This document shows positions 2,921 through 27,169 of a stretch of DNA of 64,000 nt, in pieces. The notes under the pieces were generated by a model that saw only the letters and a program-made list of their open reading frames with translations, had not been told where the DNA came from and ran no database searches. Each line of letters starts with the position of its first letter. Position 1 is the first letter of the stretch. Source of the DNA: Chara braunii. Its lineage: Eukaryota; Plantae; Charophyceae. The translations under genes and the position numbers were made by a program. The DNA is taken from positions 552,867-616,866 of the forward strand of contig BFEA01000016.1 in NCBI GenBank assembly GCA_003427395.1, in the 5' to 3' direction.

Positions 2921-2975
2921 CCGGGGATGTCCGGGTGGCCTTCGAAAAAATGCAAAGGGGGGCCACTACGGGTGA

Positions 2976-4034
2976 TTCCTTCGGGACACCCATTGAGGTT
3001 GAGGCTAAACAGAGAGGGCTCGTACGACCCCTATGTGGGGTGAGGCACGAAAGGCCTGGGGATGAACTCGGACGCGAGCCGGGTCAGGTGCACGCGCGAG
3101 AGCAAGGGGGAGGCCGAATGGCCGTCGGAAGACCTGCGGGGCATCGCCCCGGCCGAAGTCCTTCGGCACATCCGTTAAAATTGGAATAATACAGAGAGGA
3201 TTTGCAAGGCCCCCACGTGATGCTGACACGTATAAACCCCAAAGGAGGCGCCAGGTTCGTGTGCCGAAGTAGGGTGGGGTCGCATCCGTACGGAGTTGGG
3301 AAGTTGTGGGGCACTGCCCCGGCCTAAGTTCGTCGGGATGTCCGTTAAAACTGGCGTGATACGGAGGAGGTTCGCCCGACTACTGTGCCTAAGGATGGCA
3401 TGTGCCAAAGTCCGGGAGTAAAACCGGACGTGGGCCGGACTAAGGGCGTGCAAAAGGTGGCGAGAGGGGGTAAGCAGGCCGAGTGGCCTTTGGTGCCGTG
3501 GCAGGGAGGTTAGCTCATGGTCGCCGTGCAAGGGTGATATCCCAGGGGCCTGGAATGAACCCGGACGCGGGTTGCACCGGGTGTGTGTAAATAAGAAAGG
3601 GGACAGGTCCGAACAGTTGCTGGAGTTAAGGTGGTAGGTGCCTGAACCGGGGCCCGAAAGGAGGCCAGGTTCGTGCAGGGATAGCAGAACAGAAGGAGGA
3701 ATTACTGCGGGAGGAATCGTTCGGGGAAAGTTTGTTACGCCGGGAAGATTAGCACGGCCCCTGCGCAAGGATGGAGCATAAGGATTTGGAAAGAAGCCGG
3801 ACGCAGGTTGCACCGGGTACATACAGATAAACGGGGAGGCGGGGGGGGGGGGGCGATCAGATCATCCCGTGGTTGGGTCCTCCCGGCGGCTGCCCGTGGC
3901 GGTAGTGGAGAGGGGCCAGTCGGCACGAAGTCCTTCGAGACTTCTGTTAAAATTGGAACGATGCAGAGAAGATTAGCCTAGCTCCTACGACCAGGCAGGG
4001 CATATAAATCTTGAGGGTAGCTCAGGTTTCTTTT
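2976..4034 (+). pseudogene. U6: Tandem array of at least 5-6 degenerate U6 snRNA copies inside LTR B
   Basis: 3948-3977 TAAAATTGGAACGATgCAGAGAAGATTAGC and 3744-3773 GAAGATTAGCAcGGCCCCTGCGCAAGGATG each match the conserved U6 sequence (recalled) at 29/30. Further copies start near 2976, 3158, 3328 and 3490. Confidence 0.9.
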
Positions 4035-4789
4035 ATTGTTATTTTCTTTTCTCTATCGCGGTCGTTTTGTCGGAGACGAGAATCACCGGATCGGGCGCTG
4101 CCAGGCAACCTGTTGAGCGGCCGCAGGAAACTGAGGAAAGCGCTGGGCGGGGTGCCGTTGACGTCAACGGGGTCGAGCGAAGAACGAAGGGGTGAATTGG
4201 GATGGGAAGCTGCGGCAGGTGCACGCGGCGCAGCGGACTCGGAGGTGTCGGAGAGGCGAGGTCGGGGCGCAGTGAGGAGGGGGCTCTAGGCCAGGGCGAA
4301 CGTGACTATGAAGCCAGATTTGGAGAAAAGTCAGTAAAGCAGGGGAGTGAAATGATATTGAAAAAGGGGGAAAGGAATCAGTGAGATGCCGATGTACATA
4401 GCCGGTCACCGGTGGTAGGTTCTTTCGAGCTTGGTCGTCTTGCTGATCAAAAAGGGGGGGCGGTGAGGTGCTGCGAAGTGGGTGGTGTTCGCGGACCTAC
4501 CCTGCAGGATGGCGGGAGATCCGCCCTCGCTCTGTTTGTCGAACGAGAAGCAAGCGGGGGCAGAGCTGGGACGGACGAGCGGGCCTACCTACTAAGACGC
4601 GCCAGGCCCCGTGCTGGTAAAGGGATTCGACTTTGCCTCTGCATCTTGTCCGACCTGGGGATTTAGTCGGACCACGCTCATCCGACGACAGTGATAGCCA
4701 TGGTGATTGCGAAGGTATCGATCCACGTACCACTGATAAGATTGCTCCAGGTCTGAGGGGCGACGGGTTGAAGACGTAGGCTCGGAGTC

Positions 4790-4860
4790 AATGACCAAGC
4801 TTAGTTGGTTAAACGCTCGAGTCGTGTTCGGAAGGTCTTGGGTTCAACCCCCACGGCCCT
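4790..4860 (+). other. tRNA-derived segment with Pol III A/B-box-like motifs inside LTR B
   Basis: AGCTTAGTTGG (A box/D arm) and GGTCTTGGGTTCAACCCCCA (T arm/B box) at tRNA-like spacing. The acceptor stem is poor. Confidence 0.5.
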
Positions 4861-6054
4861 CTTGGGCATCAACAGGCTGTTTTCTAGCAAGGTGACAACA
4901 GGCCAGCTGCGTGAGCTGCCGATCGGACTGTTAGCCAATGAGCTGACTGTCCTTTCGGCCTGCGCGATTATGGACTGTGGGCTGCGGACAGGAGGCTATG
5001 GACTGCAGACTGCGCACTACTGTGGACTGCGGGCCACTGTGTACCGCTGCTGCTACTGCTGATCTACATCGTTGTGTGCTGTTGCAAGGGCGGCCGCTGG
5101 GCACGCAGTCTTGCTGCCTTATGTTACTGTGCACTATTGCTCGCTGTGTACTGACGCTGTGCTTGCGGACTAAGTGCGGGCAACGACTGTTGTAGACTGT
5201 TCGCGTTTACTGTTGACCGTCGCCGTGCACGGCTGCGGCCTACGGCTGGCTGGGCACAAGTTACACGGTTGCTGTGGACTGCGCCCGGACTGCTGATTGC
5301 GGGCGACTATGACTCCGGTTGTTGACCATCGCCGGATACAGCTGCTTCCTGCCGTTAGTGTTGCGTGTTCCTGCATACTACCATAGGAGGTGGCTGGTTG
5401 TTATGCGCTGCGGTGGATGGATGTAGGGGAGTGACCGGGCTGGAAGGGGGGGGGTTATTGCTGCAGATTGGGGGGTCATCAGGGGCGGGACATCAGCAGT
5501 TGATTCAGAATTGACCGAGCTGTCACATTGGCTACCACTTGTGGGGCCCTCAGGCGCTGAAGGATTGAAGACCCTCTCGAGCGAGTCTGAGTATATCTTC
5601 CCTGAATCTGAGAGTCTCAAACCTCCTCTCCCTGCCCTTCTTACTCTAAGTCTGGTCCTTTGGTTCTGAGAGGAAGGCGGCAGGCGGGCTTGTGACCCGT
5701 GAGCCGCGCCAAGGCCTTTGTGGGAGGTTCGCCCCACCGATTGCGGGAGCTCTGCCGGGACTCAGGAGGAGTCCTGGAGGCAGGGAACTGAGTGGTGATT
5801 CCCGGACTCCCTCTATAAACCCAGTTATAACCCCTACTTGTACACCGTTCTACGGTTGACTGAGCGTATGGTGTGAACCCTGTATTTGATTTTGGGTTGA
5901 CTTTCGGGACATAAGTCAGACTAAAGTAAACGAACGTGTATGCAACCTCAGTTTCAGCCTTGTTGATTGTCTAAAAGCAGATTGTGAACAAAGGGGGTGC
6001 ATCTGGAGGAAGGTTGGGAGGAAGGCAGTATTGTGTGCAGTTTGACTGGGTCGT

Positions 6055-7005
6055 TAAGGCTGGAAGGTCTCCATAAGTTTGGGGAAGCCCAGCGCTTTGT
6101 TTATTTTGGTTTTGTGTGGAACAATTATGCCGCTCTATAAGTTTAGGTAGCCTGAGTGCTCTGAAGGTTGGGGAGTCCCCATAAGTTTGGGGAGACCCGG
6201 TGCTGTGAATTGTGTGGAGGGTCGGGACGCTCTATAAGTTTAGGTGACCTGACTACTTTGACTTGTGAGGGTTTGATTGTGGATGATTTTCAGGGACTCA
6301 GGGCGCTCTATAAGTTTAGTTACCTTGGGTTGCCTTGTTTTACTTGGAGGTTCTTTCAGTTTCTTTGATTCTGAACGAGGAGGTCTGAACCGCTCTATAA
6401 GTTTAGGTGGTTCAACCCTTCTCCTGTTTGTTATGAGGGGGTAATTCTAGTAGGGGGCAGACCGCTCTATAAGTTGAGGTGGCCTGGCCTACTGCCTCAT
6501 ATGGACTGGATCAGAGAGAAATGAATCTGACAGAGGATCAGACCGCTCTATAAGTTTANTTAGTCTGACCCAATGCCTCGCACATGTTGGAACCCAATGA
6601 CTATAATTTGGTTATATTGTACTACTATATTACTGGATCATAATAGGCCAGTCAGACCGCTCTATAAGTTTAGGTAGCCTTGCTATAGCTTATCATAACT
6701 GAAGAGAGTATAATTAAGAGGCATAACTGAATGTAAGCCTGGGAAGGCTGAGCAATGTTCTAAGTTGAGCGACCCAGCCTTATGTCCACTTTAAGATTAA
6801 GTTCAGAGAAATATATACAACTTGGCTATTTAAACAATTCAGGGCGGCTAGAATGGTCTAGTCATATGCCTAAAGAAGAGATAAATAGTTGTGTCCTCTG
6901 TTTGGTGTATATTTGGCTAAGTCAGATGCGCTNTATAAGTTTAGGTGATCTGACTTTAGGCCTGGTTAAGTTGGGCGCGCTCTATAAGTTCAAGTGGCCT
7001 GACCT
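6055..7005 (+). repeat. Hairpin array I in LTR B: ~12 stem-loops with conserved loop GCTCTATAAGTTTAGGT and non-repetitive spacers
   Basis: Motif near 6070, 6131, 6177, 6228, 6304, 6391, 6463, 6544, 6658, 6929 and 6978, mostly flanked by its own inverted repeat (TGAACC/GGTTCA 6386-6414; AGTCAGAT/ATCTGACT 6920-6955). Confidence 0.9.
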
Positions 7006-7289
7006 ATGCCTTATGTAAGTTGGGTATAAATGGGTAACTCACAGAGGGAGCATGAACTATTGCTTGCTAAGAACTTGGGGTTGGTGAGAGTACTTACCTT
7101 TGTGGTTTGGCCTGCATGTGACTGAGTGGGATTACTACTTGGTCTGGGTTTCAGGTTGACAGGTAGTTGTTTTAGAGGCTCGCCACGTGCTAGAGCAATA
7201 GGAGTTAGTTCAATTCCTGCATTTTCTGAGCTGATTTTATTTTACTTAGATCGATTCTTGCATTTTCTGAGACCCTTGGTTATACTTGG

Positions 7290-7780
7290 GTTTGTATAAA
7301 TTTTGGCAAGCTACTTTCTCTATGGAAAGCGCTGCCGAAATTTCTACAGGTTCAAGGAGTTAGTCAAATTTTTACTTGTCAAAAGTTCAAATTGTCTTTT
7401 TTTTGTATCTGACTAGGCAAAATTGGACTTTGAGAAGTTAAGGTTAGTTCCAAATTCGGAACTTAGCCTTGTATAAATTTAGGGAAAGCACTTTTCTAGA
7501 GGGAGTGCTGCCGAAATTTTTCCAAAACTGAGGAGTTAGTAAGATTTTGTCTGGGTTGAACTCGAGTTGCCTTTTGAGTTCGAATCTGACTTAGTATAAA
7601 TCTGGGAAGTCTCCCTTTCTAAAGGGAGTGCTGCCCAAATTTCTACTAATTCGGGGAGTCAGACAAAACTTGACTTTCCAGAGTTACAGATTATTTTTAT
7701 TTTTCATATTCGAGCGTATATAACTTTTGAAAAGACACTTTTCCTACGGGAAGGACTGCCGAAATTTTCTTAGTTTAAAG
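7290..7780 (+). repeat. Hairpin array II in LTR B (about 4 long imperfect hairpins)
   Basis: Repeats of TTGTATAAAT..CACTTTTCCTACGGGAAGYGCTGCCGAAATTTCTACA. The same unit is at 450-600 in copy A. Confidence 0.85.
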
Positions 7781-8054
7781 AAGTTAGATTATATTTTGGC
7801 AGGTGGCGATTCTGGTGATCCACTCTGTATAGGGGGGATTATACCATGATCCACCCTTACTTTGGGCCCTGCTTAAAGGTAGGTTCAGGCTTAGTCAGTA
7901 AGAGGGATCTTGGATGAGAATGTGTTATGGAGTTGTATTCTCCATACACTTATGATTTCAGCTTGGTGGTTGGCCTGCCTTGTGTTACAGGTCATCTTGA
8001 CCGTTTGATTCAGGATTTTGACTAGTGTCAGCTTGATCTTACAAGGATCATCTT

Positions 8055-8073
8055 CTGTTATCACTGATAACAG
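8055..8073. other. Conserved palindrome CTGTTATCA-C-TGATAACAG in the LTR core
   Basis: Perfect 9-bp inverted repeat; also near 830, 13665, 20805 and 36449. Confidence 0.7.
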
Positions 8074-8393
8074 GTCGGTTGCCGATTCGTCGGTCTACGA
8101 CTCAATTCCAACTCACTCTCCATACCCAACCTAAAAGGCTTTAGCCCTGGTGACTTTATTGTTTGTTAAGAATTTCACCCGGACTTTTATTGAATGGCCA
8201 TTTGACAAAGGTACTGAGTATTTAATTATGGTTGGTTGAACAGGAGGTTGGGGTTTGCATGGCTAAAGCAAGGGGTATGAGTGCGGATATTGGTTTGGGT
8301 TGACCCCGTGTAGTGCGTGTTTTGTCGTTCGATTCTTGATGTGATTGCAGGTACGTCCTGTGGCTCGGATTTTGGATTTGGATTGCCTGCGAT

Positions 8394-8410
8394 CCCTTAT
8401 ATATACATAT
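8394..8410 (+). promoter_or_regulatory. Candidate LTR TATA box (CCCTTATATATA)
   Basis: C-run plus TATATA, typical of plant LTR promoters. Present at the orthologous site in C (~13290) and E (~36045). An alternative CTATAAA lies at ~5815. Confidence 0.4.
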
Positions 8411-10260
8411 GGTTGTGAGGAGTCCCACTGTGCCTGTGAGAAGTGATCGTCTCAACTCTATCTCCCTTATGCGTGTATGCTTGGGTGTACCTATGGTGGG
8501 TGTTCGCAATGCCTGAAGGGCCCCGCGTTAGAAGTCTGCTTAGAGGTTAAGACTGAGAGGCATAGGGAAAAACTTTCCTTTTGCTTGTTTGCTTCTTGGG
8601 GGGTTTCTTAGTCGGACGCTGGTCCTGGGTCGAGATTCAAGGTCCTTGTCCAGGACATCCCAAGCCCTAGACTCTGCAGGGGAGGAACTTCCCCTCGTAC
8701 AGAGCCTATCTGCATTGGTTGTTGAGACACCCAACCCTAAAGGCGGAAATGTCGTGAGGGCCGAACAGCGTGTCCCTCAGCCGTTCAATATCGTGAGCGG
8801 TGACCCCTCACGATATATTCCTTCACCCACTCAATATCGCGAGGCCGGAACTGCGATTACCACGTATGACCGACATCGTATGGTTGGTATGTGATTGACC
8901 TGCAGCCGCGCGACTTTATACTAGAATCGTACGTGCGACGCTCCCCACACTAGCGTCTAAAGGTTATGGGATCAAAAGGGGCGCACACATTGCACGAACG
9001 CTTGGGATTATTAGATTTTCGTGGTTGGACGTTGTAGTCCGTGGCAGCTGTCAAAGTCAAACCCCTTGACTTCCACCCAAACCTGGAGTAGGACTTAACC
9101 CCAGGGCCGCATGAAACGACTACCACCACAGGTATGGACCTGTGTACCACCCACTCTGCACAGAGTGCAGAAGAGGGTGTGTGGTCTTCAACCGCGCATG
9201 GCGGTTGTCCAGCGTCGAGAGATTAACCCTCAAGGCGCATGTTAACCGACACTTGAGTGTCGAAGGCGACCCTCCAGATTAACGAGGACCGCACGAGTAT
9301 AGGTACTACATAACACCCCATCATTGCAACTGCTTGCATACGTTTGCGTTGCTAGTCGATATGAGTAGGCCCTTCGTCCGCGCGGTTTTATACTAAGTCC
9401 CACGCGAGACGCCCAGCCGGATTCCGCATCGGAAAGTTATGGGTTGGCTACCGAGGGGCTAGGAGCGTTGTCGCGTTGTTTGTGTTGTGTCATTTTGCGT
9501 GTGTGTGTGTGTTCCATTTTTTTTTTGTTCGTAAAGTGGTGTGCGCGTGGGGGGGGGGGGGGGGGGATGCGTCCTAGTCGATCGACTACGGGCCACGCTT
9601 GGAACTTCAACCCCCAAGATGTCGGTTCGCGTGCGGGTCCGATAGGCGTGCTACCGCTCGTACTCCCTGTGCTACAGCGAACGAAAAACGCCCTCGGCTG
9701 GTCCACCTCTTCGATTGCAACTGATTAGCTATTGTACTGTGGACTGATAGCTCGGCGGGGATACGCCCACCGAAGGGAGGTGACAACTCTCGTAAGGTGG
9801 AGGTAAGATGTGCCTCGCGTAGGCCCTATCCTGTCGTAGGGGCTCGCGAGAGGTATGGCTGGCGCACTCGGTCGGAGCGGCCTAAGGAAGCTCCTCTTGT
9901 GTGTTCGTAACGAGGTTGGTCCAACTCCTGCGTGACGCGGCCGAGAGGGTCCCGCGTTGCCATGTGCGGTGCCGGACCGATGCGCTCAACAGCGGTGGTA
10001 TACAAGTTGCCATAAATTCTTGCCTTTGAAAAACACGTGGTAAAAAAAAAAATGTACAGATTATAAAGACTATATCACCAGCGGTCAAGTTTTTCGTGGG
10101 TATCTAGAAATCGTATTTTATTGTGAAAAATTAACAGTCTAAGTGAAATTGTCATAGCATGATAGAGACAAAAAACTGAAAGGATACGTGTGATATAAAA
10201 CCAAATTGATGTTATTGCCATAGCCTGCGGGCTTTGTTCTCTTCCAGAGCCTTTAACCCC

Positions 10261-11725: not shown

Positions 11726-12588
11726 CCTGTCGAGGGCATTGCTCTCGCAAACGGACCCTCCCGGTCGTGTAACGCAAGATTTTGCATGACTTCGTCGTAG
11801 AGCGTTGCTGCTCCAGCCGAGTGCCGGAGCCATACGTTTCATGAACCCCTACGATAGGATAGAGTCACGCGAGGTACAACTTACCTCCACCCATGGGAAT
11901 TATCACCATCCCTTAGGTGAGTGTATCCTCGTCGGGCTACCAAACCATACAAAAGTTTTTTGTTTGCTATCGCAGAGGTGATCTTGTCGAGAACGTTTCT
12001 CGTTCGCTGTAGCATCGGGGGTACGTGCGGTTAACGTCCGAATCGGACCCGCTGTCAAGCGCATCGGTCCTACAGAGGGGACCCGTTGTCGGCCACGTCA
12101 CGCATAATTTTTCAAGACTTCATCGTAGAACGTTGCTGCTCCGATCGAGTGCGCTAACCATACCTCTCACAATCCCCTGCGATAAGATAGGGTCACGCGA
12201 GGTAAAACTTACCTCTACCCGTGGGAGTTGTCACCATTCCTTAGGTGGGCGTATCCTCATTATGCTACCGAACCACATGCGAAAGCTTTTCATATGCAAT
12301 TGCAGAGGTGGTCTGGCCGAGGGCGTTTCTTGTTCGCTGTAGTATAAGGGGTATGCATGGTCCTATGCCTCTATTAGACCAGTACGCGAATCGTCGCACT
12401 GGGGGCTGTGGTCCCACGAGCGACTCGATGTCGGTCGACTAGGATGCTTCCTTCTTACCACACGTTACACCACACCCCAAAAAAGTATCAAGTTACTCAC
12501 ACAAACACTGCTAATAATGGAAACAACATATGTTATGAAGAACAATAAAATGAACAAGAAAGTATCAAGTTACTCACACAAATCCGCT

Positions 12589-13263
12589 TAGGGGACCCCT
12601 TGGAAATGCGTTCGAGCGTTCGGTCCGAACGCGGACAAAAAAAACAAAACAAATCTGAAAAAAACATATATTATAAAGAACAATAAAATGAACAACATTT
12701 GCTTGAGCATTGCATCGAACTTTCTTACCAAATTTGAAATAAAAATAAAATACGAAAAATATAATAATAAAAAAATAAATTAAAATCAGTGAGTGAGCGA
12801 GCACGTTTTCAACACCGCCATCTTTGACGATTGTTAATTTTGTTTTGGCATAGCCAAATGCCCTGAAAATTTATAAATAAATACTTCACACAATAAAAAA
12901 CTTATTAAAAAAGTTTCAAATTTTAATAAATTGTTTAAGTTTCGCAGTAAAGTAAAAAAAAAAACTAAAAAGTGAAAAAAAAAACAAATAGTGAGTGGGC
13001 GAGCACGTTTTGACACCACCATCTTTGGCGATTCTTAATTTTTGTTTGGCTTAGTTAAATGACTTCAAAATTTATATCCACGTACCTCACATCAAAGAGA
13101 ACTAAAAAAGAAAAAATCAAAAAAAATAAATTAATTTTAAGTCCCGAAATATTTTTTTATGGGGGCCGAACGCCTTCGGGCTTGGACCCCGAATGGGACC
13201 CCGAACCTCCGTACGTACGGAGGTTGGCCCAAGAACTTCTGTACGTACGAGCTCGTGACCCTG
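12589..13263. mobile_element. Probable hAT-type non-autonomous insertion in LTR C
   Basis: Absent from other LTR copies; TAGGGG...CCCTG ends; AT-rich core with internal duplication. No intact TSD, and an adjacent LTR segment is deleted. Confidence 0.45.
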
Positions 13264-13839
13264 TATATATCTATATATATGTATATACATATATATAGGG
13301 GTATAAGACACGAGAGGATCACTTTTCACAATCACAGTGTGACTTCCTCCATACATATATACATGATCACAGACAATTCAAATTTGAATCTTAAATCACA
13401 AAACATACCTGCAATCATATCAAAGATTCTCACATTGACCGAGCACACACTACGCACTGTCAACTTTAACCACTCTTTGCGTTTGCGTTATTCACAGAAG
13501 CCCCAACCTTTGTCCATTCTTCCAAAAGAAAACACTTAGTCTTTTTTTAAATGACCATTTATTAAAAGTCCCGGTAAAACACAAAAAAAAACATTTCAAC
13601 CCACAAGGGCTAAGATCATAGATTGAGTAGCGATAATGAGTAAGAGTTGGGTCGAAAACCAACTTGTTATCAAAGGATAATAGAATATGATCCTCGTAGA
13701 ATAAACTTAAAGTTAGTCAAGCTTCGAATCAATCTGAATAACAGTGACCTGCGACACAGCACAGCCTTGTGCCAAAGTCATTCTTGAGCAATCATGAAAT
13801 AATCCTACCTTCCATATTGATCTCTAATACTTGTTTGAA

Positions 13840-14425
13840 AATGTAATAAATTTCGGCAGTATATCCCCTAAACGAAGTTCTAAAATACTTTAATACCTTT
13901 AAAATACAAGAAATTTCAGCAGCACTTCCCGTAGGGAAAACACCTTTGCATAATTTATAGACGACTAAATATAAAATCTGAAAGTACTCCTTGATTTAAT
14001 AAAAATTGGGCCAGCATCCTCTAAAGAGGTAGGTTTCCCTGATTTATACTAAGTCAAATATAAACTCAATATAAAACTTGAATTCTGTCAAAACAAAATT
14101 CAATTATCTCTTTAGATTTGTAAAAATTTTAGCAAAGTTTCTCGTAGGAAAGATGTTTTTTCAAAATTTATACAAAGCTAAGTACAAGATAGAAGTAACT
14201 CTCACTTTTAGACAACCAAAATTTGTTTAACTCTTTGAATTAGTAAAAAATTGGGCAACATTTCCTTTAGAGAGGTAGGCTTCTCAGATTTATACTAAGT
14301 CATATATGAAGTCGGATTAAATCGAACTTTGTGAAAGATAAAATTTAACTAACTCCTTGAATTTGCAGAAATTTCGGCAACTCTTCCCGTAGGAAAAATG
14401 TCTTTACAAAATTTATACAAAGCCA
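13840..14425 (-). repeat. Hairpin array II in LTR C (~6 units, mostly ~120-bp period)
   Basis: Repeated GAAATTTCGGCAGCACTTCCCGTAGGAAAA...ATTTATAC on the + strand. Confidence 0.85.
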
Positions 14426-14724
14426 GAAATATAAAATAAAGTTGCATCTCATAAAATGTTGAACTTGAACTAAGTAATAAACTTAACTAGAAAATGCAGA
14501 AATTTGAACTAATTCTTATAACTCCAATATATGGCGAGTCTGTAAAACAACTACCTATCAAAGCTGAGGCTCCAAACAAGTAGAACTCACACTCAACAAC
14601 ATACATATTCATATCCCAATGGGTAAGTACTCTCATCAAATGCTCAAGTTATTTTTACACAAGTAGTTCATTATTTATCAGTTGAGTAAAACCCCAATAT
14701 CATAGCTTACATATGGCATAAGAA

Positions 14725-15530
14725 AGGCTAAACCATTCAACTTAGAAACAATGTTCATTTTTTGTCTTTACTTATAAACAAAACACGGAGCATAATAAAG
14801 TTTCTATATTCATTGGGCATATGACTAAGCGATTCAACTTAGAAACCCTGCTTAGTCGCTCTAAACTGTTTAATATCAAAGTTATATATATATTTCTTCA
14901 CTTTTATAATCAAAAGCAGACATATGACTGAACCATTCAACTTAAAAACACATATTCAGCCTGCCTGAATCTTATCGCTGATTATATTCTTAGTTGGGTA
15001 TTCTCTTCTTTTAGTGATAGGATATACTCATACTATTTAACTTAGAAACCCTGTCTGAACAGCTTGTCCATATAAAATATATAATATACAATATAGGAAA
15101 AAATACTTTTAAATTTCTATTTTTATATGCGTGGCCTCTCATACTAAGTCATTCAACTTAGAAACAATACTTAGTCTCAGCTTCAATTCCCTGAAAAAAA
15201 AACACAGAAATAGTTGAGTTATTAAACTTAGAGATAGATACTCAACCCCCTCTTTCATAACTAAAAGAAAAACAGGGATCCCTAAGCTATTCAACTTAGA
15301 AACAAATGTCAGAGGTCGGTTGAAAAACCTCCAAAAAAAGCAGGTAGACCAAGCCATTTAACTTAGAAACAAATGCTTGGCCTAGAAATGCAAACCATTC
15401 AGGTCCCGCCAAACAAAGCCACCACGACTTGACTACTGAACTTTGAAAACATTGTCTGACCCATCAGAAGACAATTTAAAGAAACATAGTAGTCAGACCA
15501 TTCAACTTACAAACAATGTCTGACTCTTTG
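14725..15530 (-). repeat. Hairpin array I in LTR C (~10 units; loop ATTGTTTCTAAGTTGAATG in LTR sense)
   Basis: + strand CATTCAACTTAGAAACAAT flanked by different stems: GACTAAGC/GCTTAGTC 14823-14857, AGTCAGAC/GTCTGACT 15491-15525, CCAAGC/GCTTGG ~15349-15380. Confidence 0.9.
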
Positions 15531-18129
15531 TTGGACCTTTAACCTCGAATCAAAACCACCTTCCCCCCACCTTCCCCCCACCTTCTCCCCACCTTCCCCC
15601 AATTTAAAACCCTTTTCAGAGTTCGACTTGAGATAAACAAAAAAAAGAAAACTGAAGTTTGCGTATGCATTCCTTTATTTTACTCTGACTTAATCCCGAA
15701 AGTCAAACATAAAACGTGTGGGGATGCACGCAGTATAATCCTGCCATAGAGAGATGTACTCATAAGGGTTTTAGCATGAGTTTATAGAAGGAGTCGAAGG
15801 ATTACCACTCAGTTCCATGCCTCCAAAACTTCTCATGAGTTCCAGCAGAGCTCTCGCAATCGGTGGGCAAACTCCCTACAGAGTCTTGATGTGGTCCTAC
15901 GGGTTGCAATCCCGCCTGCGGCCTTCCTCTCGTAACCTTAGACTATACTTAGAGTAAGAAGGACAGGAGGAGGGGTTTCACACACTCGAGATACACGGAA
16001 GGGACAAACGCAACTCGCGTGAGAGGGCCTTGCAATATGGACGCGCCTGAGGACCCCGCAATGGCAGCCAAATACGCAACAGAATAACCACACCATAAGT
16101 TGAACCCGGTGTATCAATACTCTGACAATCTCCCCACTTGTAATGACAACCTCCCTGCAAAGCCTAATCATTTTATCAAACTTGCAACACCATTTCCCTT
16201 TTTTTAACTACTGCTATGCAGCCTTGAAAGTTAATGTTCACATAGAGCACCCCTCCCTTCGCTTTAAAAGAAATAAAGGCAAAAACTCAGTAGGTCTTAA
16301 CAACCCCACTGCGCGCAACAGTCGTACACAGTGGCAGGGAAAAATAGCAATGTCCTGCAGTGTGTCTCGCAAAACCCAACCATTTACCACAGTAGCCAGC
16401 CACTACTGCATGTACAACAACCGCACGCAGCAACCATATGTTGTTGTAATGACCAGCCAATTACGCCAGCAACCAGCAAATATTGCACACACAACAACCG
16501 TGCACATCAACATATATCGCTATAATGCCCAACAACGTGTAGCAGAGGGCGCAGTTCCACATAAACATAGTTTTAGCAGAACTCGTAGCTTTAGTAGGAA
16601 CAACAACCGAAGCACGGTCCTTTTGTTCTGCAGATGAACTCCCTCTCCGGAGGCCAATTCCAACGAGAGGGTGTGAGCGGTCCGCTTAATCCGACACAGC
16701 ACACCTCCTCCGCTCACCCGATCGATTGTGAACAACACCGGTTTGCTTGATTGGCTGAGACAATACGCCCACTTGCTCAGTTGCGGCAGCATGCTCACTT
16801 ACTTTTCTCTCTCACTGTCTCTCTCTTTCCCTCTCGCTCTCACTCTTTGCCAACTCTGCTTACCACAAATGACCTACTTGGACCATACTCGACTTTCTAT
16901 TCATCCGCATCGCTAGTTCCAGTTGTCAGGTTAGTGCTCCTTCTCCGTCGTTTCTTGTTGTCGTCACCCCAGTCGCCTTCTTTGTTGTCCTTACCTACGG
17001 TGCATAAGTGCACTTGATCGTCAATCCGACCAGGTTCAAAAATTGGCTTGCTGGGCGAATGCTTCGAGGCAAGATTCTCACGGCCACCAGGTACGTATGC
17101 TTCTCACTTCCACTCTCGCTTTTTTTTTTTCTCTCTCCATTACTGTTATCAGCAACTGATGCACCTAGCCGTTAGTATGGCCAGGTTCATTCACTTCGAA
17201 GGAGAATTATGAAAACGACGAAACACAAGTATCGTGAACACAGTCCTTGAGACGAGTACGACAAGCGCCTTACCCCCGGGCGATTACGGCGACCACGAGG
17301 AGCGCTCGAATCAAGGTAAGCACAACTATTCACCTGACAGGCGATGATGACGATATCAACCATGAGGTGGCAAGGACGCACCAAAGTGGAGGTAAGAGGT
17401 TTTATCGAAAGAGGATGAAAGTCACCACGGGAAGAAAGAAGGCCGCACAATCACGATTCCAAGCAATCATGAATACTGACGCCGACTCGATCTGCATGTC
17501 CCAAATGAATTTCGCGTTAGAGTATGGAACGATACGTCACGATACTCCCGTAGTGGCTGCGCACCTGCTACTACTAGTAGAGGCCAAACCATCATCCGAA
17601 CTGAGAATCAACATGCCAATCGAATCGCAATGCGCGAAAACCTCGGAAACGCCTCCTCGTTCGTGGAAAACAACCGAGAATCTAGCGGATGCTTCAACAC
17701 TCGCCCTCCCTTTTTTGGCTCCCTCTCTTTTTCCGCGCACCCCCTTTCTCTTCATCCTCCCCTTCTACTAACTCTCCTCCAGATCTAACTACACCATTTA
17801 ATCCACCTTGCCAAAATAACTCTATTTACAATCTTCCCCTACTCGTTTTCGTCAAGATACGAGTGTGTTGTAGTTGTTTACTCCCGCCATAGTTTCTTTC
17901 CCCGTGGCTACCTCCATCCCTGTTTTAAATGCACATGGCGCGATTTGCGTCCAGATTCACCCCTTTCTTAAGGCCTGTTGCTTCTTCCTCCCTCCTCGAT
18001 TCTACCTTGTCTTTTTATTTTTCTCCTTTTTCATTATCAGTGCCGTCTTCCCGATCATTACTAACACATCTTCATGGAAAAGCAGTCAATGACCCAAACT
18101 TACATGGAGCTATTCGTTAGTCTCAGCGA

Positions 18130-18955
18130 CTCTGTGAAACTTCGGATGCGACAACTATTAGATGGATCAATTAGCCTTTCGCCCCTATACCCAAGTCCGA
18201 CGAACGATTTGCATGTCAGTATTGTTGTGGGCCTCCACCAGAGTTTTCTCTGGCCACGCCTTGCTCATACATAGTTCGTCGTCTGCAGGTCCCAACGGAC
18301 AATGCTCACACTCACACCTCTCACAACAGATCATGGTTAGTGGGTGACGCATTTCCCAGTTGTGCCCCACCCTGCTTCAACTCCTGCTGCCCTAAAGGAA
18401 ACTTCGAAGGAACCAGCTACCAGATGGTTCGCTTAGTCGATCGCCTCTATACCCAGGTTCGACGATTGATGGACATTGCTACTGCGGCAGACCTCCGCCA
18501 ACGCTTCTCTCTGCGCTCAACTTCGGCATAGTTCTCGTCTTTTGGGTCCCATAGGGCATGCTCTAATTCACATCTCTCAGAGCAGATCGTGGTTAGTGGG
18601 CGGCGTATTCCCCAGTTGTGCCCCGCCCTGCTTCAGCTCCTGCTGGCCCAAAGGAAACTTCGAAGGAACCAGCTACCAGATGGTTCGCTTAGTCGTTCGC
18701 CCTTATACCCAGGTCCGACGATCGATGGGCACATTGCTATTGTGGCAGGCCTCCGCCAGCGCTTCTTTCTCTGCACCCAGCCTAGGCATAGTTCATCGTC
18801 TTTTGGTTTCCATAGGGCATGCTCACACTCACACCTCTTACCACAGATCGTGGTTGGCGGACGGTGCAATCGTAGAGCCCTCGCCACTCATGTTTCTTTC
18901 GCCTTGTGGCTTAGCCACCCACCCACTCGTATGTACACCGAGCTCCTCGGCCCTT
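18130..18955 (-). pseudogene. Three tandem degenerate LSU (25S/28S) rRNA fragments (LR3-LR5/D3 region) inside LTR C
   Basis: + strand matches the LSU reverse complement GGAAACTTCGGAGGGAACCAGCTACTAGATGGTTCGATTAGTCTTTCGCCCCTATACCCAAGTC.GACGAACGATTTGCA.GTCAG (recalled). Units start near 18130, 18390 and 18647. Confidence 0.9.
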
Positions 18956-21044
18956 TCCTCAACAATTCATGGGTGTACCAACTGAGCTAGGCGCAACCCG
19001 TTCGAAGATCGGCCCCAGTACCAACGCCGGGATCAGCCTAAAAACAAAATAGAGAATAAAATACATAAATTTACTAAAGCAATGGTTAAATAAAAATAAA
19101 AAGTTAAAAAATAGAAGACGGGGCTAGGGGGACCACAGACACCCTTTTGTCCCGCCAAATGGGCCTGCTGTTGTGGTTGTTAACAAAACCGAGGGGGATA
19201 ACCCCGCCAGACCCTGAACCCCTCGGTCCCTTCAAGCTGCTTCAATGCTCTTTCGTCGTCGTGTTCTGGGCCCGATCCCTGAACCTGCTGCCTGAAACTC
19301 AAACACCATAACCGATAGTGCTCTGCCCAAGGCTGGTACTGATACTATCAGATAACTTTATAAATACGTTCAACCAGTTGCACGCCCCAATGGAAATGCC
19401 CCAGGGCTGCACTTTGGCCTATCGGTCAGTTTCACGACTACCAAAACCGGTATCTTTTGTTATACAGGTGTCGGGTTCCACGCACGACCCTCACTCACTC
19501 GTCACTAGCTACAAGCCTATTCATCATTGATACTCAATTTTATCAGATATAGGAAAAATCACCCGCGCCTTAAGCTCGCGCGTTCACACACCCCCTAATC
19601 TTACCTTGCACGCGCCCGTTGTTCGGCTACAAAGAGTCAACCGTGGGCCGTGCAATACGTACATAGGCTCCTACCTTATATATCATCCTAGGTATCATTT
19701 GTGTAAAGTGCAAATATACGCATGAATATCCTTGTAAGGGTATTCACATCGACACCGTGCGAGAATTGTCGCCCGAGGCGTTGATCTCCCAACGTCAATC
19801 CTGCTCCGGTCGGCTAGGACGACCAATTTAACCATGCAACACACTTCAGAAAATAAAATCAAGCTTCATACGTAAATCACGCCCAGTCCCTTGTTTGCAT
19901 CCGATCCATAACTTTCGACGTAAGAATTAAGCAGGTGTCACGTGCGAGACTCTGAATAAATATCGGGGCGATGTAGACTTTCTCATGTCGACTAGCCACA
20001 CATGAATGGGCAAGTTGTCGCAATCGTGGCGAACTATGTGGTACATAGAACCACACGATCCTTAAAGATGTCGAGGTTCATTTTCGACACTCAAGTGTCG
20101 GATGACACACGCCTTGAGGGGTTAATCCCTCGACGCTCGACAATCTCAAGTGCGATTGCGAGACCTACCCTCTTCTGCACACTATGAAGAGGAGGGGTAA
20201 GTGGGCTTCGACCCTTGGTGGTGGCCAAACGCCTCTACCTCTGGGAGCAGGGCTCCATCATCGGAGGCCTGAAAACATGTTAAGGGGTTTGACTTCGGCA
20301 GTCGCCACAATTATAAAAATAAAAAAAGCAAAAATAAAAGGGGATCTCCCTTTGCTCTCAGTAAAAGTTTGCTCAATCCTTCCGTATGGTCAAAGTATAC
20401 CGCGTGAGTACTTAAAAACATGAATATAACGACCTTATTGGACACGAGGTGATCACTCTCACAATCACAGTGCGAATCCCTTCAAAATATACACATGATC
20501 GTAGACAAATTCAAATATGGACTTAAACTCACAAAGCATACCTGCAATCATACCAAAGATTTAACATCAACAGACCACGCGCTACACGGGATCAACTTCA
20601 ACCATTTTTTGTACTCACACCCCTTGCCTTAGTCAAACAAGTTCCCACCTTTGTCCAACCTTCAAAAATAAGATCACTCAGTCCCTTTTTAAATGATTAT
20701 TTAAGAAAAGTACAGCTAAAAATCCAAACAAGCATTTTAACCCACAAGGGTTAAGGCCTTAAGTCGAGTAGCGAGATTGAGTTAAAGTTGAGTCCAAAAC
20801 CGACCTGTTATCAAAAGATAACAGAAGATGATCCTCGAAGGATCAGCCTGAAGTTAGTCAAACCTTCGAACAATAAAAAAAAAAAATGACATGCAACACA
20901 ACATAAGTCAGTGCTCAAACTATGATTCAGTGAATATATGATCGAGTAAATATACGATTGAGTGAAGACATGATTAAGTGAATATATGATTGAGTGATGA
21001 AATGATCATACCTTCCTACCTTATCTTTGACACTTATCTAAAAA

Positions 21045-21670
21045 TATCAAGAGTTTTGGCAGAATCTCCTTTAGCAGGGGTAGATCATTAAAACTTTCAA
21101 AGTCCAAAAATATTATAAGTCCTTTTGAATTAAGACATTCTGGCAGCGCTTTCCGTATGATAAGTGTCTTTGCAAACTTTATATAAGACTAATGAAAATC
21201 CCAGAAAACTTCTAACTGAAAAAACTAAAATTTTATTTAATTATTCAGATTAACAAAAATTGGGGTAGCACCTCCCCTAGGAACCTACAATCAAAAATAT
21301 TATGCTAATCCAGAAGCGAGTCACGTAAACTTCCTAGCTTTTTCAAAAACAAACTTTGTCTAACTCCCTTAACTAGTAACAATTTGGGCAGCATCTCCTT
21401 TAGAGAAGGTAGCTTCCCAGATCCCTACCGACTCATAAATATGAAGTAAACAAAAACTTATAACTTTGCATAAAAGGATATGTCTAACTCTTTGGATTAG
21501 TAAAAATTTCGACAACATTTCTTTTAGAGAAGGCAGAGTGTCAAATTTATACTAATCCAAAAATGACTTAGACAATTTTATTATGCAAATCTTGAAAAAT
21601 TATCTAACTTCTTAAATCCTGTATAATTTGGGGCAGCAACTCTTTTAGAGAGTTAATATTCCAAATCATA
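21045..21670 (-). repeat. Hairpin array II in LTR D (~6 units)
   Basis: Repeated AAATTTKGGCAGCAYCTCYTTTAGAGA...ATTTATAC at ~120-bp period. Confidence 0.8.
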
Positions 21671-21734
21671 TAAGTATAAGTCCTAAAACAAAAATTAATG
21701 AAAAACTTAAAACTATCTCAAATCGCTTCAACAC

Positions 21735-23302
21735 ATGGTGAGTCGGCTGGAGGGAATTCACCCTATGTTGAGCAACGCGAAGAACATACCGCGTGTTTTG
21801 GAACACGATCGAGCAGTGAGTCTACAGAAGGAGATCGCAGCAGGTTTTGACTTGTGGAAAATTTGTCGGAAGAAACCTCCTCTGGTTCCTATCAACACAA
21901 TACGCGAATGTTTTTCCCAAGTTGAATCTTGCGCACATTCCTTGTATGAGCACCATGTTTATGATGTGAAAAGTCGTTTTGAGGGTTTGGTACTTACTCC
22001 CCTCGATCGTAACCCCGGGGAGACGCTCGTAATATGCCCAACCATATTCTATGAGGGGATGATGGATACGTTTGTACGAAACCCTAGGTACATGATTAAA
22101 GTGCCAAGTGAACAGGAAACGCTGAGGGAGATTAACAAAGACGTGAGGGAGGCCGGCTTAAGCGATTTTGCTAAATGGGATAGGTCGGGGACTTTCGGAT
22201 CGGCATATATTATACATAAGCATAAGGACTTGGGAAGGTATAGACCGATATGCCCAACGTTTAGTGAACCGATGATCAAAACTGGGAGGGTCGTCTCTAG
22301 AGCACTTAATTACTTGTTGTCAACTATTCCCCGAAACGGGCATTTTAACTTGCCTTCCGTTTCCGCGTTACCTCAGCGCTTGCATGATGCAAACAGACGG
22401 ATCTTGAGCTTGGGGCAGGGATATGAGGTGTCCTCCTACTCATTTGACATTAAGGAAATGTTTAGTCGTCTGCCACACTGTGATGTCCTACGGGCAGTGG
22501 AGTGGGTTATAGCATTCCATATGTCGAAGGGTCGTACTTTCGTTCGGGTGAACACGAGAGGGAAGGGTTCTTCCTTCGGGGTTACTACAGGCGCAGACCA
22601 TTGGTGTAAACTGAACCTCACAGAGATTTTGATCTTTTTTAAGTTAGAACTGAAACATACTTACACTTTCGCCATGAGTGTATTGCTGCAGCAGGTGGTT
22701 GGTATCCCGATGGGAAAAACTACCAGCCCCCCGTTAGCTTGTATCTTGTGTGCCTATTCGGAATTTATGTACCTTCGTAGTCTGGGTAGATACGCCCGCT
22801 GTGTGTTCGACTATCGATTGGTGGATGACGTCATGTTCATCACTGTGACTAAGAACTAGGACTTAGCGGCGAGATTGTTGACTGGCTTCGAGAACTGCTA
22901 TCCAGACTCATTAACTTTGAAAAAGACCGATGACGGCGGCGGGACCTTTGATTTCTTGGGCTGCCAGATTCGGACGTCCAGGTGCTTTCCCTATCTGAAT
23001 TGCGTCCAGATGTCTAAGAATGAGGACTGCGTTTGGACAGATAAACCGCTGAAGATCCATAACGGGCAGTCCTTTCTGTCCTGGGATGTAAAAGGCAAAA
23101 AAACGCAGTCGTCAGTGGCTACCTACATCGGATTGACAGGAACACCGCGATCAGATCGGAGATACCGCGACGGGTGCTGACACTGAAACAAGAACTCATG
23201 AAAAAGGACTTCCCGGACTCGTTTTTTCATCGAGTACTGAAGCACTTTGCAGTGAGACATGACAAAATTTGGCAACATACTGTCCGCTTCTTGGAGCAAT
23301 AA
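21735..23302 (+). pseudogene. Penelope-like reverse transcriptase (truncated; internal stop and frameshift)
   Basis: Motifs PLDRNPG, HKHKD..YRPI, FDIKEMFSRLPH, QQVVGIPMGKTTSPPLA, RLVDD, DFLG. No C-terminal GIY-YIG is visible. Confidence 0.85.
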
Positions 23303-23309
23303 GACAGGG

Positions 23310-23510
23310 TATGGACACTTTCTGTGTGGTGCATTTGAATCTTTGGCTGAAGTGTTTTGTTTTTTTCGATTGTTTTTTACGATCTCGTGAGCAATAGGAC
23401 AGGGTGTGGACAGTTTCTGTGTGATGCAGTTGAATCTTTGGTTGAAGTGTTTTGTTTTCTATTTTTTACGATCTCGTGAGCAATAGGACAGCGTGTGGAC
23501 ATTTTTTGTG
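23310..23510 (+). repeat. ~85-bp tandem duplication in the PLE 3' UTR
   Basis: TTTTTTACGATCTCGTGAGCAATAGGACAG occurs twice; GGACAC/AGTTTCTGTGTG.TGCA..TGAATCTTTGG occurs twice. Confidence 0.8.
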
Positions 23511-24097
23511 TCGTGGATTTCTGTTGTTGGTGTAAAGCGCTTTGTTTTCTGCTTTTATGATTTCCTGGAACAATAGAATAGGATGAGGACAATTCTAGTG
23601 TGTACTGTTGCATTTTAGATTCTGGTAGATGTGGTCTGTTTCAGCGAAGTTGGTCGTTCGGGTCGGTTCGTGTAGTAGTTTGCACTGGGTTGATCGCAAG
23701 ATAACCGGGTCTGGATATCCTGTGCGGCTGCTCAGATATTGCGACAGGGAGTACAGACTAGGATGACACCTTTTTTGAGTGGAGGTTGTGCCAAGGATAC
23801 GGGGCCTTGTGCCTGCTTTTCGGTTGTCTGGAACTGTAAAAACCTGGTGTTTCGCTTATACGAAAGGTCTGGCTCTGCAGGTCCTATTCGAAGGGACGGC
23901 CATGTTGGGGCTACCGGCAGAAACATGGGATACGTTTTGTTGTTTGTAGAGATGGGGTAGACTATATGTGCATTGGTTGTGTGTAGGAGCAACAGGACTA
24001 ACGACCGGAACTGCATTTGGTTTTCGAAGACCGATAGCAGCGACGGACGGGAGAGGGTTGGAATGGGAAGTTTGACTAGTGGAGGATAGTGGCGGAA

Positions 24098-24138
24098 CCC
24101 CCTGATGAGATGACGGCGGCCATCGAAACACGTCGGGG
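24098..24138 (+). ncRNA. Minimal type I hammerhead ribozyme
   Basis: CCCC-CTGATGA-GATG(acggcggc)CATC-GAAAC-AC-GTC-GGGG: complete core, stems I and II, and a very short stem III. Predicted cleavage after 24134. Confidence 0.88.
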
Positions 24139-24444
24139 ACGCAATCCCGGGATAATTTTTTCTATCTTGTACATGCAATGACATGCAATGATGCTTTGTG
24201 AGTTTGAACGTCCTTGCTTTGGATGCTTTGACTCTGTGATATCACCATTACCATTACATGGTGAACTCTAAAGCTACCTACCAACTCAAAGATTCAGGAT
24301 AGGCAGTTTACACACAATCCACATGCAAATTGATATCACGATAAGTAAGCACTCTCACCAAAACCCCAAGTTATTTTTCACATAAGGAGTTCATTATCTC
24401 TCAACTAGATAAATCCTAATACCCTAGCTTACTTCATGACATAA

Positions 24445-25232
24445 AGACTAGAACATTCAAGTTGAAAACAATGTATAGCCTTGTCTTATTTATAAACAAA
24501 ACACAGGGCAAAGTAAAGTTTCTTTCTTCATTTGGCATATGACCAAGTCATTCAACTTAGAAACCTTGTCTGGTAAACCCGAGCATTTAATATTTCATAT
24601 TTAAAAGTACTTCTTTGATCCTTTTATGTCCGGTGAGGCATAAGGCCGAATCATTCAACTTAGAAACAATACTCTGTCTGCCGAAGTTTCTTTTGGAACA
24701 TTCATAATTTCATACTCTCTTCCTTCAATGATAAACTATAGTCAAACCATTCAACTTAAAAACCTTATCTGAATAGCATGTTCTCATAAAATATATAATA
24801 TAAAATCTAAAAATAATTATTATCAAATTTCATGTTTGTATGCGCAACTTCTTAGACTAAGTCATTCAACCTAGAAACAATACTCAGTCTCAGCCTAGAT
24901 CCCCTCAAACGAAAACACAGTAAGATTTGAGTTATTCAACTTAGAATCAATTTTGAACCTTTATTTTCAAAACTTCAAGAAAAGCAAGGATCCCTCGACC
25001 ACTTAACTTAGAAAACATGCTTAGAACTTGTTAAAAAACCTTCCAAAAAAATAGGTAGACCAAGCCATTTAACTTAGAAACAATGATTGGCCTCATAATC
25101 AAACCATGCACACCTCAAAGCAAAGCTACAACAACCAAACCATTCAACTTGAAAACATTGTCTGACCCTTCAGAAAACAAATCAAAGAAACATAGCAGTC
25201 AGACCATTCAACTTAGAAACATGCCTGACCTT
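24445..25232 (-). repeat. Hairpin array I in LTR D (~10 units)
   Basis: CATTCAACTTAGAAACAAT motif with flanking inverted repeats, e.g. AGACTAAGT/ACTCAGTCT 24854-24890. Confidence 0.9.
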
Positions 25233-26054
25233 TTTTTTATCCAAAATCTCAAAGATCACGTCCTCCGACCTTCCCCTAATCATCCCCGTTTGTCTGATTT
25301 CAAACAATAATGCAAAGTAGGATTCACACAATTTTTTTTTATGATATTTAATTTGATTAAATAAGAAAGAATGAATAAAACATAAGGGTGCACGCATACA
25401 TTAATCAAACTAGAGGGATATATGTAAATAGGGGTACAACGGACTCACACAGGGCAAATAATATTACCTGATAGTTCTCTACCTCCAAAACTCCTCCTTG
25501 ATCTCGATAGAGCTCCCGCAATCGGTGTGTGGGTCTTCCACAAGGTCTCCCTGCGGTCTTGTGAGTTAAAATCTCACTTGTCGCCCTCCTCTTCAAACTC
25601 ACATTAGACTTAGAGTAAGAAAGATGGACAAAGGGGTTTCAGACTTGAGATACAGGAAGGGACTAACTCAACTCGCATGAGATGGTCTTGGTATCTTGAT
25701 GCGCATGAGGGCCCCGCAATGGTGGCTAAAACGCATAAAAAGTTGGCCAACCAATGCCAAAACACAAAATCGCTGCCCTATGACAACTCCCTACTTGGTA
25801 GCAATAACCCATTTGCAGAAGCCTGGTCACTCCTCAAGTCGCAACGTCGTCCCCCTCGACCAAAACTGTCACTACCCAACTTAAAAATGTTGCGTTCAAA
25901 TACAGCACACCCCTATGCTCTATTCGAAACACGGGTAGAACACAACAACATCCAACAAAAACTACTCGCACCGCAACCGTGCGCGGCAGCCAGTAGAAGC
26001 ACAATCGGGAACCTCGCCGTGAAAAGTACAAATTCAAAAACACATTTCTTGTAA

Positions 26055-26250
26055 GAAAGAGAAAATGCACAGACTTAGATAACACAGTTTTTGTAAAAGA
26101 CGATGTGCACAAACTCAGATAGCGTTGTCTGTGTAGATGACGATGTGTACAAACTCAGATAACACTGTTTGTGTAGAAGAAAAAAATGCACAGGCTTAGA
26201 TAGCACTGTCTGTGTAGAAGACAAAAATGCACAGACTCAGATAACATTAT
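26055..26250. repeat. ~40-bp minisatellite (about 5 copies) in LTR D
   Basis: Repeats of TGCACARACTYAGATARCACTGTYTGTGTAGAAGA. Confidence 0.8.
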
Positions 26251-26847
26251 TCGGGCCCCGCACCGAATACACAGGTGGACCTTGCCATAATAAGGTTGCT
26301 TGCACGCGGACCTCAATTAATTGAACGTGGTTGACAAACTGTGCTTCGGAGCTCTTATTACCCTGGCTCCTCCTGCCCCTCTACACAAAGCAAAAGACAT
26401 GAAACTGCTTTGTTGTCACCTTGCTTTCTCGTCGGACCTCGAACCCGAAACTTATAAGTGGATGGAATAAGAGTGATTAATTTGCTATATCGCAGTGAGG
26501 CACACATACCCAATGCGCAACTGCTGCAATTACATCTACCTGCTGGCTAGCACATGGCGACCTCCATGACAGGAGGCATCAAGACTGGAACGTGCCCAAA
26601 GGAGATTTGCAACGAAAGCAAACCCTCCCCTAAAATGGGATCAGGTACACCAGCAAGCACGATGTCAAGCACCACTTGGCTGAGCGGAATTACAAGCAAC
26701 CGGATCGACTCCTATTCTTCCTAATGCGCAATATGAGGATGAGTTTTCTGCGAGAACCTGGAAGGGTACACCGCCCCATGGAGCTAATCCCTATGAGCTC
26801 GAATGTGGGGATTAGCATGCCGACAAACAACAACACAAACAACTCTA

Positions 26848-26855
26848 GCTATCCC

Positions 26856-26890
<35 letters not shown>

Positions 26891-27080
26891 CTCGATTAGT
26901 CTCTTGTTGCTATACTCAAGACAGGCGAATGACTCGCACGTTAGTATCACTCCCATCCACTACCAACGCTTCTTCTAGGCTCGCCCTGCTCAAGCATATT
27001 TCCCCATTTTTTCGGGTCTCAATAGGCATGTTGCCACTTATGCCTCTCCACTACATATCGCGGTTGGGGGATAGTGCATG
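26848..27080 (-). pseudogene. LSU rRNA fragment inside LTR D
   Basis: GCTATCCcGAGGGAAACTTCGGAGGGAACCAGCTACTAGATGG, 42/43 to the conserved LSU antisense around the LR5 primer site (recalled); degenerate after that. Confidence 0.88.
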
Positions 27081-27091
27081 CACATATGGTA

Positions 27092-27093
<2 letters not shown>

Positions 27094-27164
<71 letters not shown>
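27094..27164. repeat. (CT)n microsatellite
   Basis: Seen directly. Confidence 0.95.

Positions 27165-27169
<5 letters not shown>

Follow-up and report, generated by a model that had tools for sequence, protein, structure and literature searches.

Arrays of transposon-borne motifs that change jointly have been described in Arabidopsis. One report states that the repeats of different VANDAL subfamilies "often diverged together" (PMC5735166). In this study, we analysed a 64-kb stretch of Chara braunii DNA (the window), in which several transposon-borne units also change jointly between subfamilies. According to that report, VANC reads duplex DNA, and its sites are genuine tandem repeats in a DNA transposon that is autonomous (PMC5735166), whereas the units here are predicted compensated hairpins between unique orthologous spacers, in copies that encode no protein. 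In Sirevirus LTRs, palindromes were reported to be hotspots at which siRNAs match and the sequence changes (PMC4728375). Both they and the present array are fast-evolving, hairpin-forming regions of retroelements. The Sirevirus region is a Copia LTR cis-region, and its abstract-level description does not mention compensated stems that carry a fixed loop and are separated by unique spacers (PMC4728375).

A previous report showed that green algae carry abundant Penelope-like elements with head-to-tail non-autonomous partners (PMC8557442). As described there, non-autonomous Chlamys/Penelope-like elements such as MRC1 share with the present repeat the pseudo-LTRs once taken for LTRs, the head-to-tail copies, a 3'-biased abundance and the green-algal host, and perhaps also a truncated copy in inverted orientation close to the 5' end. 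Unlike the MRC1-type elements as described there, the family here is 7-8 kb long and carries hairpin arrays and U6/28S pieces (PMC8557442). LARDs (Sukkula) and Cassandra TRIMs, in the parts of the report considered (PMC7215508), resemble the present family in being non-coding, with a large repeated part (~4.4 kb here), a non-coding middle and a repeat-middle-repeat tandem. The captured structural RNA of Cassandra TRIMs is 5S, whereas it is U6/28S here; unlike in the LARD/TRIM elements as presented, there is no primer-binding site (PBS), the flanking repeats are not sisters, and the RNA-gene pieces lie in the head and not in the repeat (PMC7215508). LINE-1 chimeras were reported to carry sense full-length U6 and ~270-nt 28S pieces on the 5' side (PMC13174262). 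Sense U6/28S pieces lie 5' of a retroelement in both systems, but unlike in the chimeras covered by the cited part of that report, the pieces here are multiplied in tandem and set 200-800 nt into the head, and another region of 28S is represented (PMC13174262).

No description of the hairpin family or motif was found in searches of mainly open-access literature, which did not extend to the Chara genome paper. The loop patterns were absent from viral contigs and prokaryote genomes, and two metagenome matches of a terminal 20-mer were taken as chance, the similarity not extending beyond 20-22 nt. The locus points to a large, apparently undescribed Chara repeat family with U6- and 28S-derived heads. 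Our best reading, to which we give a probability of about 0.5, is that the array is a multivalent RNA hairpin platform, kept uniform by conversion and held in shape by selection from one kind of partner.

Copies of the repeat and class of the element

The window holds five related copies, A to E, of one 7-8 kb non-coding repeat. Copy A (1-2930, +) is incomplete, with the bulk of its array outside the window, and copy B (2930-9995, +) follows it head-to-tail. Copy C (11728-19745, -) consists of a 5' head, 28S pieces, an unrelated middle and the common 3' part of ~4.4 kb; its 3'-terminal module of ~330 nt is duplicated, and it is broken at ~12500-13260 by another repeat. That interrupting repeat has internal inverted and tandem parts and recurs at 44610-45810. 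Copy D (19746-28990, -) lies head-to-tail before C and is split at ~21600-24270 by an unrelated Penelope-like RT element. Copy E occupies 34950-42110 (-). In the RNA sense, the 5' head is followed by sense pieces in tandem, of U6 in B and of 28S in C, D and E, and then by the middle and the ~4.4 kb common part. The middles are unrelated between copies, and the head and middle of B had no match to C, D and E at E<=1e-3; upstream of the ~4.4 kb part, the sequence common to C, D and E is the head and 28S part only.

The head of B contains four decayed sense copies of U6 snRNA (3158-4030, +), three detected with Rfam (3158-3260, 3740-3805 and 3930-4030) and a fourth at ~3330 by self-match. A separate 3'-half U6 pseudogene with a T-run end lies outside the copies (29975-30038, +). 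Three tandem sense 28S fragments were found in the head of C (18130-18941, -), the longest spanning model positions 675-954, and further pieces lie in D (27861-28137, -) and E (41207-41335, -). Directly before the 28S pieces stands a word resembling a tRNA A-box in C (18959-18992, the word at ~18989) and D (~28186), both on the minus strand. Hundreds of reads and contigs run from this word into a B-box-like word, which suggests an abundant expressed tRNA-derived SINE.

In the ~4.4 kb part, the hairpin array follows a conserved module and precedes another array, one of long hairpins; additional modules, of which some are duplicated, complete this part. The conserved module lies upstream of the array (15535-16130, -, in C); a purine tract followed by TGTCA is present in C (~16127) and D (~25786), and is not kept in B and E. 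In the second array, predicted hairpins of ~70 nt (13900-14450, -, in C) have orthologues at 7290-7800 in B, 36750-37310 in E and 450-600 in A, and also occur at 21100-21570. These long hairpins alternate, and one class has a UNCG-type cap, C(UACG)G, on the sense strand (6 exact sites).

We examined the coding capacity and the ends of the copies. No transposon domain was found in 74 stop-to-stop frames of at least 75 aa from the non-array parts, one of which gave two weak low-complexity hits; no frame-specific conservation was seen, since translated matches between copies fell in all frames alike. The likeness of the flanking repeats was 0.68-0.79 for A/B and 0.62-0.76 for D/C, and that of the separate copies B and E was 0.67-0.87. 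The flanking repeats are no more alike than separate copies, whereas an LTR element is expected to have two near-identical terminal repeats from one event. D and E begin without an upstream repeat, and no primer-binding site (TGG...) follows the repeat ends at the A/B and D/C junctions. The first-pass annotation had treated the copies as LTR subfamilies; with no PBS and no closer kinship of the flanking repeats, this class is not established.

The 3' module ends in ...GACA/AACA in 5/5 cases. Target-site duplications of 4-6 bp were not seen for E and C, and the two 5-mers found for D-C lie off the ends, the boundaries being uncertain. Partial head-to-tail tandems form pseudo-LTRs at the A>B and D>C junctions, and the terminal module is duplicated in C. 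A fragment of the 3'-terminal module is found in inverted orientation upstream of E (42680-42930), ~500 bp off and 0.61 identical. The 5' start was compared with the 3' module as a possible divergent version of it, and this idea was rejected (z<=2.6). The D/C junction itself is palindromic (19715-19760), with 11-bp arms and a centre of 4-6 nt; the palindrome is whole at the start of D (~28960), has half sites at 42095 and 42620 near E, and is absent from the A/B junction. Given this palindrome, the element may be of the tyrosine-recombinase type (DIRS/Ngaro/Crypton), which is marked by inverted or split direct terminal repeats. Helitron ends carry CTRR with a subterminal hairpin. A subterminal hairpin is predicted in the family, and no shared CTRR end or terminal repeat was seen; Replitrons have short terminal direct repeats, as described in part of PMC10288648.

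Several traits were likened to TPRT, namely mixed head-to-tail tandems, no PBS or target-site duplication found, a depth peak at the 3' end, and sense U6 and ~270-nt 28S on the 5' side. We tentatively regard the element as a non-autonomous target-primed (Penelope-type) retroelement, at somewhat under even odds. Some other class is less probable, and a LARD-type LTR element slightly less so again; we therefore assign the repeat to no family.

The hammerhead ribozyme is missing from many Chlamys. In the family there is no canonical hammerhead and none by Rfam, the matches at 24102 and 23115 lying solely in the inserted RT element. Of 22 exact short words compared with the Penelope-like supplement of PMC8557442, one matched, in a context that looks unrelated, in a type of search that misses diverged or line-broken sequence; the word search gave no link between the 3' end and any curated autonomous family. 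The Penelope-like element inside D (+) has an RT frame (21711-22859), a 95-bp tandem repeat (23294-23640) and a minimal hammerhead core (24102); 26 of the 29 matches of its RT frame are Chara braunii proteins, the best at 54% identity, in keeping with a Chara-like algal host. A broken gypsy-type element (48009-53184, +) has gag-like, protease-like and RT/RNase H frames and an integrase tail. Both were rejected as helpers because they have no sequence in common with the family, and no partner protein or autonomous element for the family was found in the window.

Hairpin tips and orthologous spacers

The array of copy C (14725-15530, -) has 10 units with an A-type tip, TTC-TAAGTT-GAA, and their hexaloops start at 15509, 15444, 15365, 15298, 15230, 15160, 15044, 14944, 14841 and 14744. 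Copy D has 10 A-type units (24450-25235, -) and copy E 10 positions of the same type (37590-38345, -), the third with a 1-nt deletion and the fourth with its loop lost. The array of copy B (6050-7010, +) has 13 positions, nine of which carry a B-type tip, CTA-TAAGTT-TAG; the rest are two units of a third type with a CCA/TGG stem (6074 and 6182), one A-like unit (6761) and one unit without a loop (~6852). The last array unit of copy A (45-92, +) shows a further tip type without TAAGTT. In these array comparisons, which rest on five old copies in one window, TTTCTAAGYTGAAT (at most one mismatch) had 23 matches (8 in C, 7 in D and 8 in E) against 0.05 expected, and CTCTATAAGTTTAG had 8, all in B (+), against 0.02 expected. 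The first-pass annotation had assigned one loop to C, D and E and another to the whole array of B. The A-type words do all fall in C, D and E and the B-type words in B, but the switch covers just 9 of the 13 B positions.

Each unit is predicted to fold into a UAAGUU hexaloop on a 3-bp inner stem, with an internal loop or bulge between this stem and an outer one; the 19-nt "loop" would thus be a short stem with its cap. The inner pairs, from the loop outward, are C-G, U-A and U-A in the A type, A-U, U-A and C-G in the B type, and A-U, C-G and C-G in the third type. The switch from A to B tips is made of compensatory pair changes (C-G to A-U and U-A to C-G). Covariation was then counted in 38 units, 34 of them distinct, with two B units containing N and two damaged E units excluded. 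Among the distinct units, pair -1/+6 was C-G in 15, A-U in 6, U-G in 4 and unpaired in 9; pair -2/+7 was U-A in 32 and C-G in 2; and pair -3/+8 was U-A in 22, C-G in 7, U-G in 3 and unpaired in 2. Cells changed on both sides numbered 17, compared to 6.8 in shuffled sets (0/500 as high) and 0-3 in slid controls. The covariation is support and not proof, since it goes back to about three independent events, and the same sequences were used to derive the structure. The TAAGTT core had been noted earlier as all that the loops share. It is common to the types, but it is more than a leftover core, being a hexaloop on a 3-bp stem with covarying pairs. The idea that a conserved structural core suggests a reader has held up, as UAAGUU on a short stem is kept across types. 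The part left unchanged between A and B tips, UAAGUU and an isosteric stem, is the likely read-out surface.

Folded singly, many units were weak, 18/42 having a z above -1. Outer stems had 29 G-U against 18 A-C (p=0.07), a strand asymmetry of wobbles that is not significant, and sliding-window folds were not clearly better on the sense strand. The UNCG-capped hairpins downstream share the sense strand of the array. The wobble counts leave RNA and DNA function undistinguished, which is a point against the platform reading. The same two results favour an array that acts in DNA or in silencing, either as repeated sites for an anti-silencing or transcription protein encoded by the element (VANDAL/VANC-like) or as a palindrome-rich, Sirevirus-like siRNA battleground in which tip change is an escape from host small RNAs; uniformity would be a by-product of conversion. 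The joint divergence of VANDAL repeats (PMC5735166) and the siRNA hotspots in Sirevirus palindromes (PMC4728375), as far as the cited portions describe them, fit with this as well. A reader of duplex DNA, however, would need no compensatory pairs around a fixed loop, the spacers are unique and not tandem copies, and the copies encode no protein. We consider this explanation doubtful.

The loop was exact in 12/12 units of B, 9/10 of C, 7/10 of D and 3/8 of E. A private AGCT variant was present in 5 of the 8 intact E units, and the other E loop changes were at loop positions 1-2. The hexaloop is therefore not strictly invariant, given these five changed E units and the visible unit of A. The private variant has a bearing on a kissing-loop zipper, in which the hexaloops of two RNAs would pair through a self-complementary AG(U/C)U core, giving dimerisation without protein and leaving the stems free to drift. 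It converts AGUU into the fully Watson-Crick AGCU, with the other E changes outside the core, and such pairing would account for the free compensatory change of the stems. However, the core offers just four pairs, and in most units two of these are wobbles; it is broken in one D unit, and U-to-C is the commonest change anyway. We regard a zipper as rather improbable.

We then compared the spacers with tips and stems trimmed. B spacers 5-11 against spacers 3-9 of C, D and E ranked 1, 8 and 7 of 5040 orderings, with 6/7 rows best on the diagonal, at a two-unit offset picked after an earlier look at the data. The four spacers wholly between B-type tips ranked 9 of 840, and spacers within one copy were unrelated (mean z 0.07-0.72). 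The positional orthology claimed in the first-pass annotation was confirmed by this collinearity, and its match between B 6860-6895 and E 37652-37686 is present. Its further observation, that dispersed tips changed in concert without homogenisation of the spacers, was also borne out, for 9/13 B positions. In three of five modules, namely post-array, R and terminal, B was closer to E (0.79, 0.83 and 0.87) than to C or D (0.64-0.72), and in the remaining two the distances were equal. Since B is nearest to E while the tip of E is the same as that of C and D, the B tip is a derived state.

Tip identity between any two C/D/E units was 0.79-0.83, and that of orthologous spacers, gaps ignored, was 0.60-0.84. 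Loop-less units occur at B position 11, subfamily-wide, and at E position 4, and the number of units varies. The array could in principle be an old one of no current function, in which template switches at strong pause sites made the units alike and which simply persists, and the tolerated loop-less units and varying unit number agree with this. The C/D/E tips are nevertheless more conserved than the orthologous spacers, and stem changes are compensated, so that we hold a functionless array to be very improbable.

RNA, abundance and the linkage of tips to heads

Other copies were sampled as DNA contigs and RNA reads placed on B at 80% likeness, with the best 40 of 279 substitutions considered. 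Most B-like contigs have G at 6772 and T at 6774, by which the 8-bp outer stem of the A-like unit is complete. Among the best 12 of 16 indel rows, there was no insertion restoring the loop near ~6852 in B-like copies. The A-like unit with its perfect outer stem and the lack of a listed loop-restoring insertion indicate that B-like arrays are stable mosaics. An A-like relic had been proposed at ~6753; the unit is there, but with an outer stem complete in most B-like contigs it is not decaying. Loose ends of other copies showed further stems on the same hexaloop, CCA/TGG (in an A/B-intermediate context), CTT/AAG and CTA/TAG, and the intermediate tips were found beside B-like spacers.

Summed contig depth, which is a rough guide and not a copy number, was 14,820 on the B array and reached 394,000 near the 3' end, where the bin contains a G run; on the unique flanks it was ~20. 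Read roughly, the family is very abundant and richest at the 3' end. On the U6 head and middle of B the summed depth was 47-520 in three bins. As this is far below the array depth, a B-like U6 head would be missing from the majority of B-type arrays. The division into a U6 type (B) and a 28S type (C, D and E) stands as far as the pieces are present, but the pairing of U6 with the B tip is one lineage, and the depth contradicts a linkage.

These results bear on a subfamily barcode, as proposed in the first-pass annotation, in which each tip type would be read by a Gag/nucleocapsid-like protein of its own helper lineage, conversion spreading the tip while the reader co-evolves, so that self is told from non-self in packaging. 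The joint change of dispersed tips is what such a code would explain, but no gag is present in any copy and no domain in the 74 frames, the apical loop and stem shape are common to the tip types, B arrays are stable mixtures with intermediate tips adjoining B-like spacers, and the link between cargo and tip is one lineage that depth contradicts. The barcode is unsupported, and we judge it unlikely.

The strand of RNA run X9 was calibrated with rRNA reads over the 28S pieces of C. X9 gave 38 reads on the B array, with sense signal in 29/30 bins and antisense in 2. None of these reads was at least 95% like B, so they derive from related copies, and RNA depth was low. Such sense-strand RNA is consistent with a reader-bound RNA. 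Run X8 fell on both strands, with antisense ~2x sense over the 3' part of B (6808-9800); this excess may reflect DNA carry-over or antisense transcription. RNA joints at 3853/9547 and 9566/3833 were rejected as splicing, being poly-G artefacts with G runs as loose ends, and no splice or circle junction was found among the best 15 of 1028 joints.

Joint change of the tips and candidate readers

Independent point changes are implausible, because the switch involves about nine differences at nine sites. The outer arms of B were 0.51 alike to other B arms, 0.48 to orthologous and 0.45 to non-orthologous arms, in pairs that are not independent, and the outer arms of C keep their position (0.67 vs 0.50). 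The B tips come with 9- and 19-nt insertions and one split position. Variants common to non-adjacent units were seen in E (five units) and in C and D (units 7 and 9). Single contigs skip between units, one contig each, and may include alignment artefacts. The pattern of arms, insertions and shared variants points to whole-hairpin conversion.

On the platform reading, hairpin-to-hairpin copying would have made the tips uniform, by template hopping of the RT at hairpin pause sites or by short-tract gene conversion. Each copying event would replace a whole cassette of 25-35 nt and sometimes gain or lose units, and selection would then retain the variants that fold into the same shape. Conversion may take place during reverse transcription or in DNA. 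Since conversion alone can produce uniformity, co-evolution with a reader is unnecessary for it. In this eukaryotic mobile element, short hairpins that are dispersed among unique, orthologous spacers have clearly evolved in concert, and the natural compensatory variants, present in apparently thousands of copies, make it a system in which short-tract conversion during retrotransposition can be measured.

A row of about ten hairpins would dock one kind of RNA-binding partner that reads the UAAGUU loop on a short stem. By a weaker inference, the partner could be a helper protein (an RT or a zinc-knuckle ORF1) or a host RNA-handling factor. The array also bears on how a protein-free element recruits its helper. 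A convertible identity code would differ from the platform in that tips are swept array-wide by template hopping, each type is matched to a different reader encoded by a helper, and non-autonomous lineages switch helpers as ten docking sites are rewritten together. We regard such a code as quite unlikely; if the tips were helper-specific, they would constitute a new kind of RNA identity code.

A mimic of U1 or of a 5' splice site, in which the loop pairs with ACUUA and an ACTTAC word follows the array, was set aside, as G+1 is missing and the E variant weakens the pairing. The word after the array, GAGAGT(A/G)CTTAC, is conserved in 4/4 copies, at 7086 (+) and at 14634, 24356 and 37503 (-); its sense strand resembles the 5' end of U1 and its opposite strand a splice donor. 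A sense splice-site-like word, TTGCAG/GTA, is conserved in the R module at 8343 (+) and at 13416, 20549 and 36177 (-).
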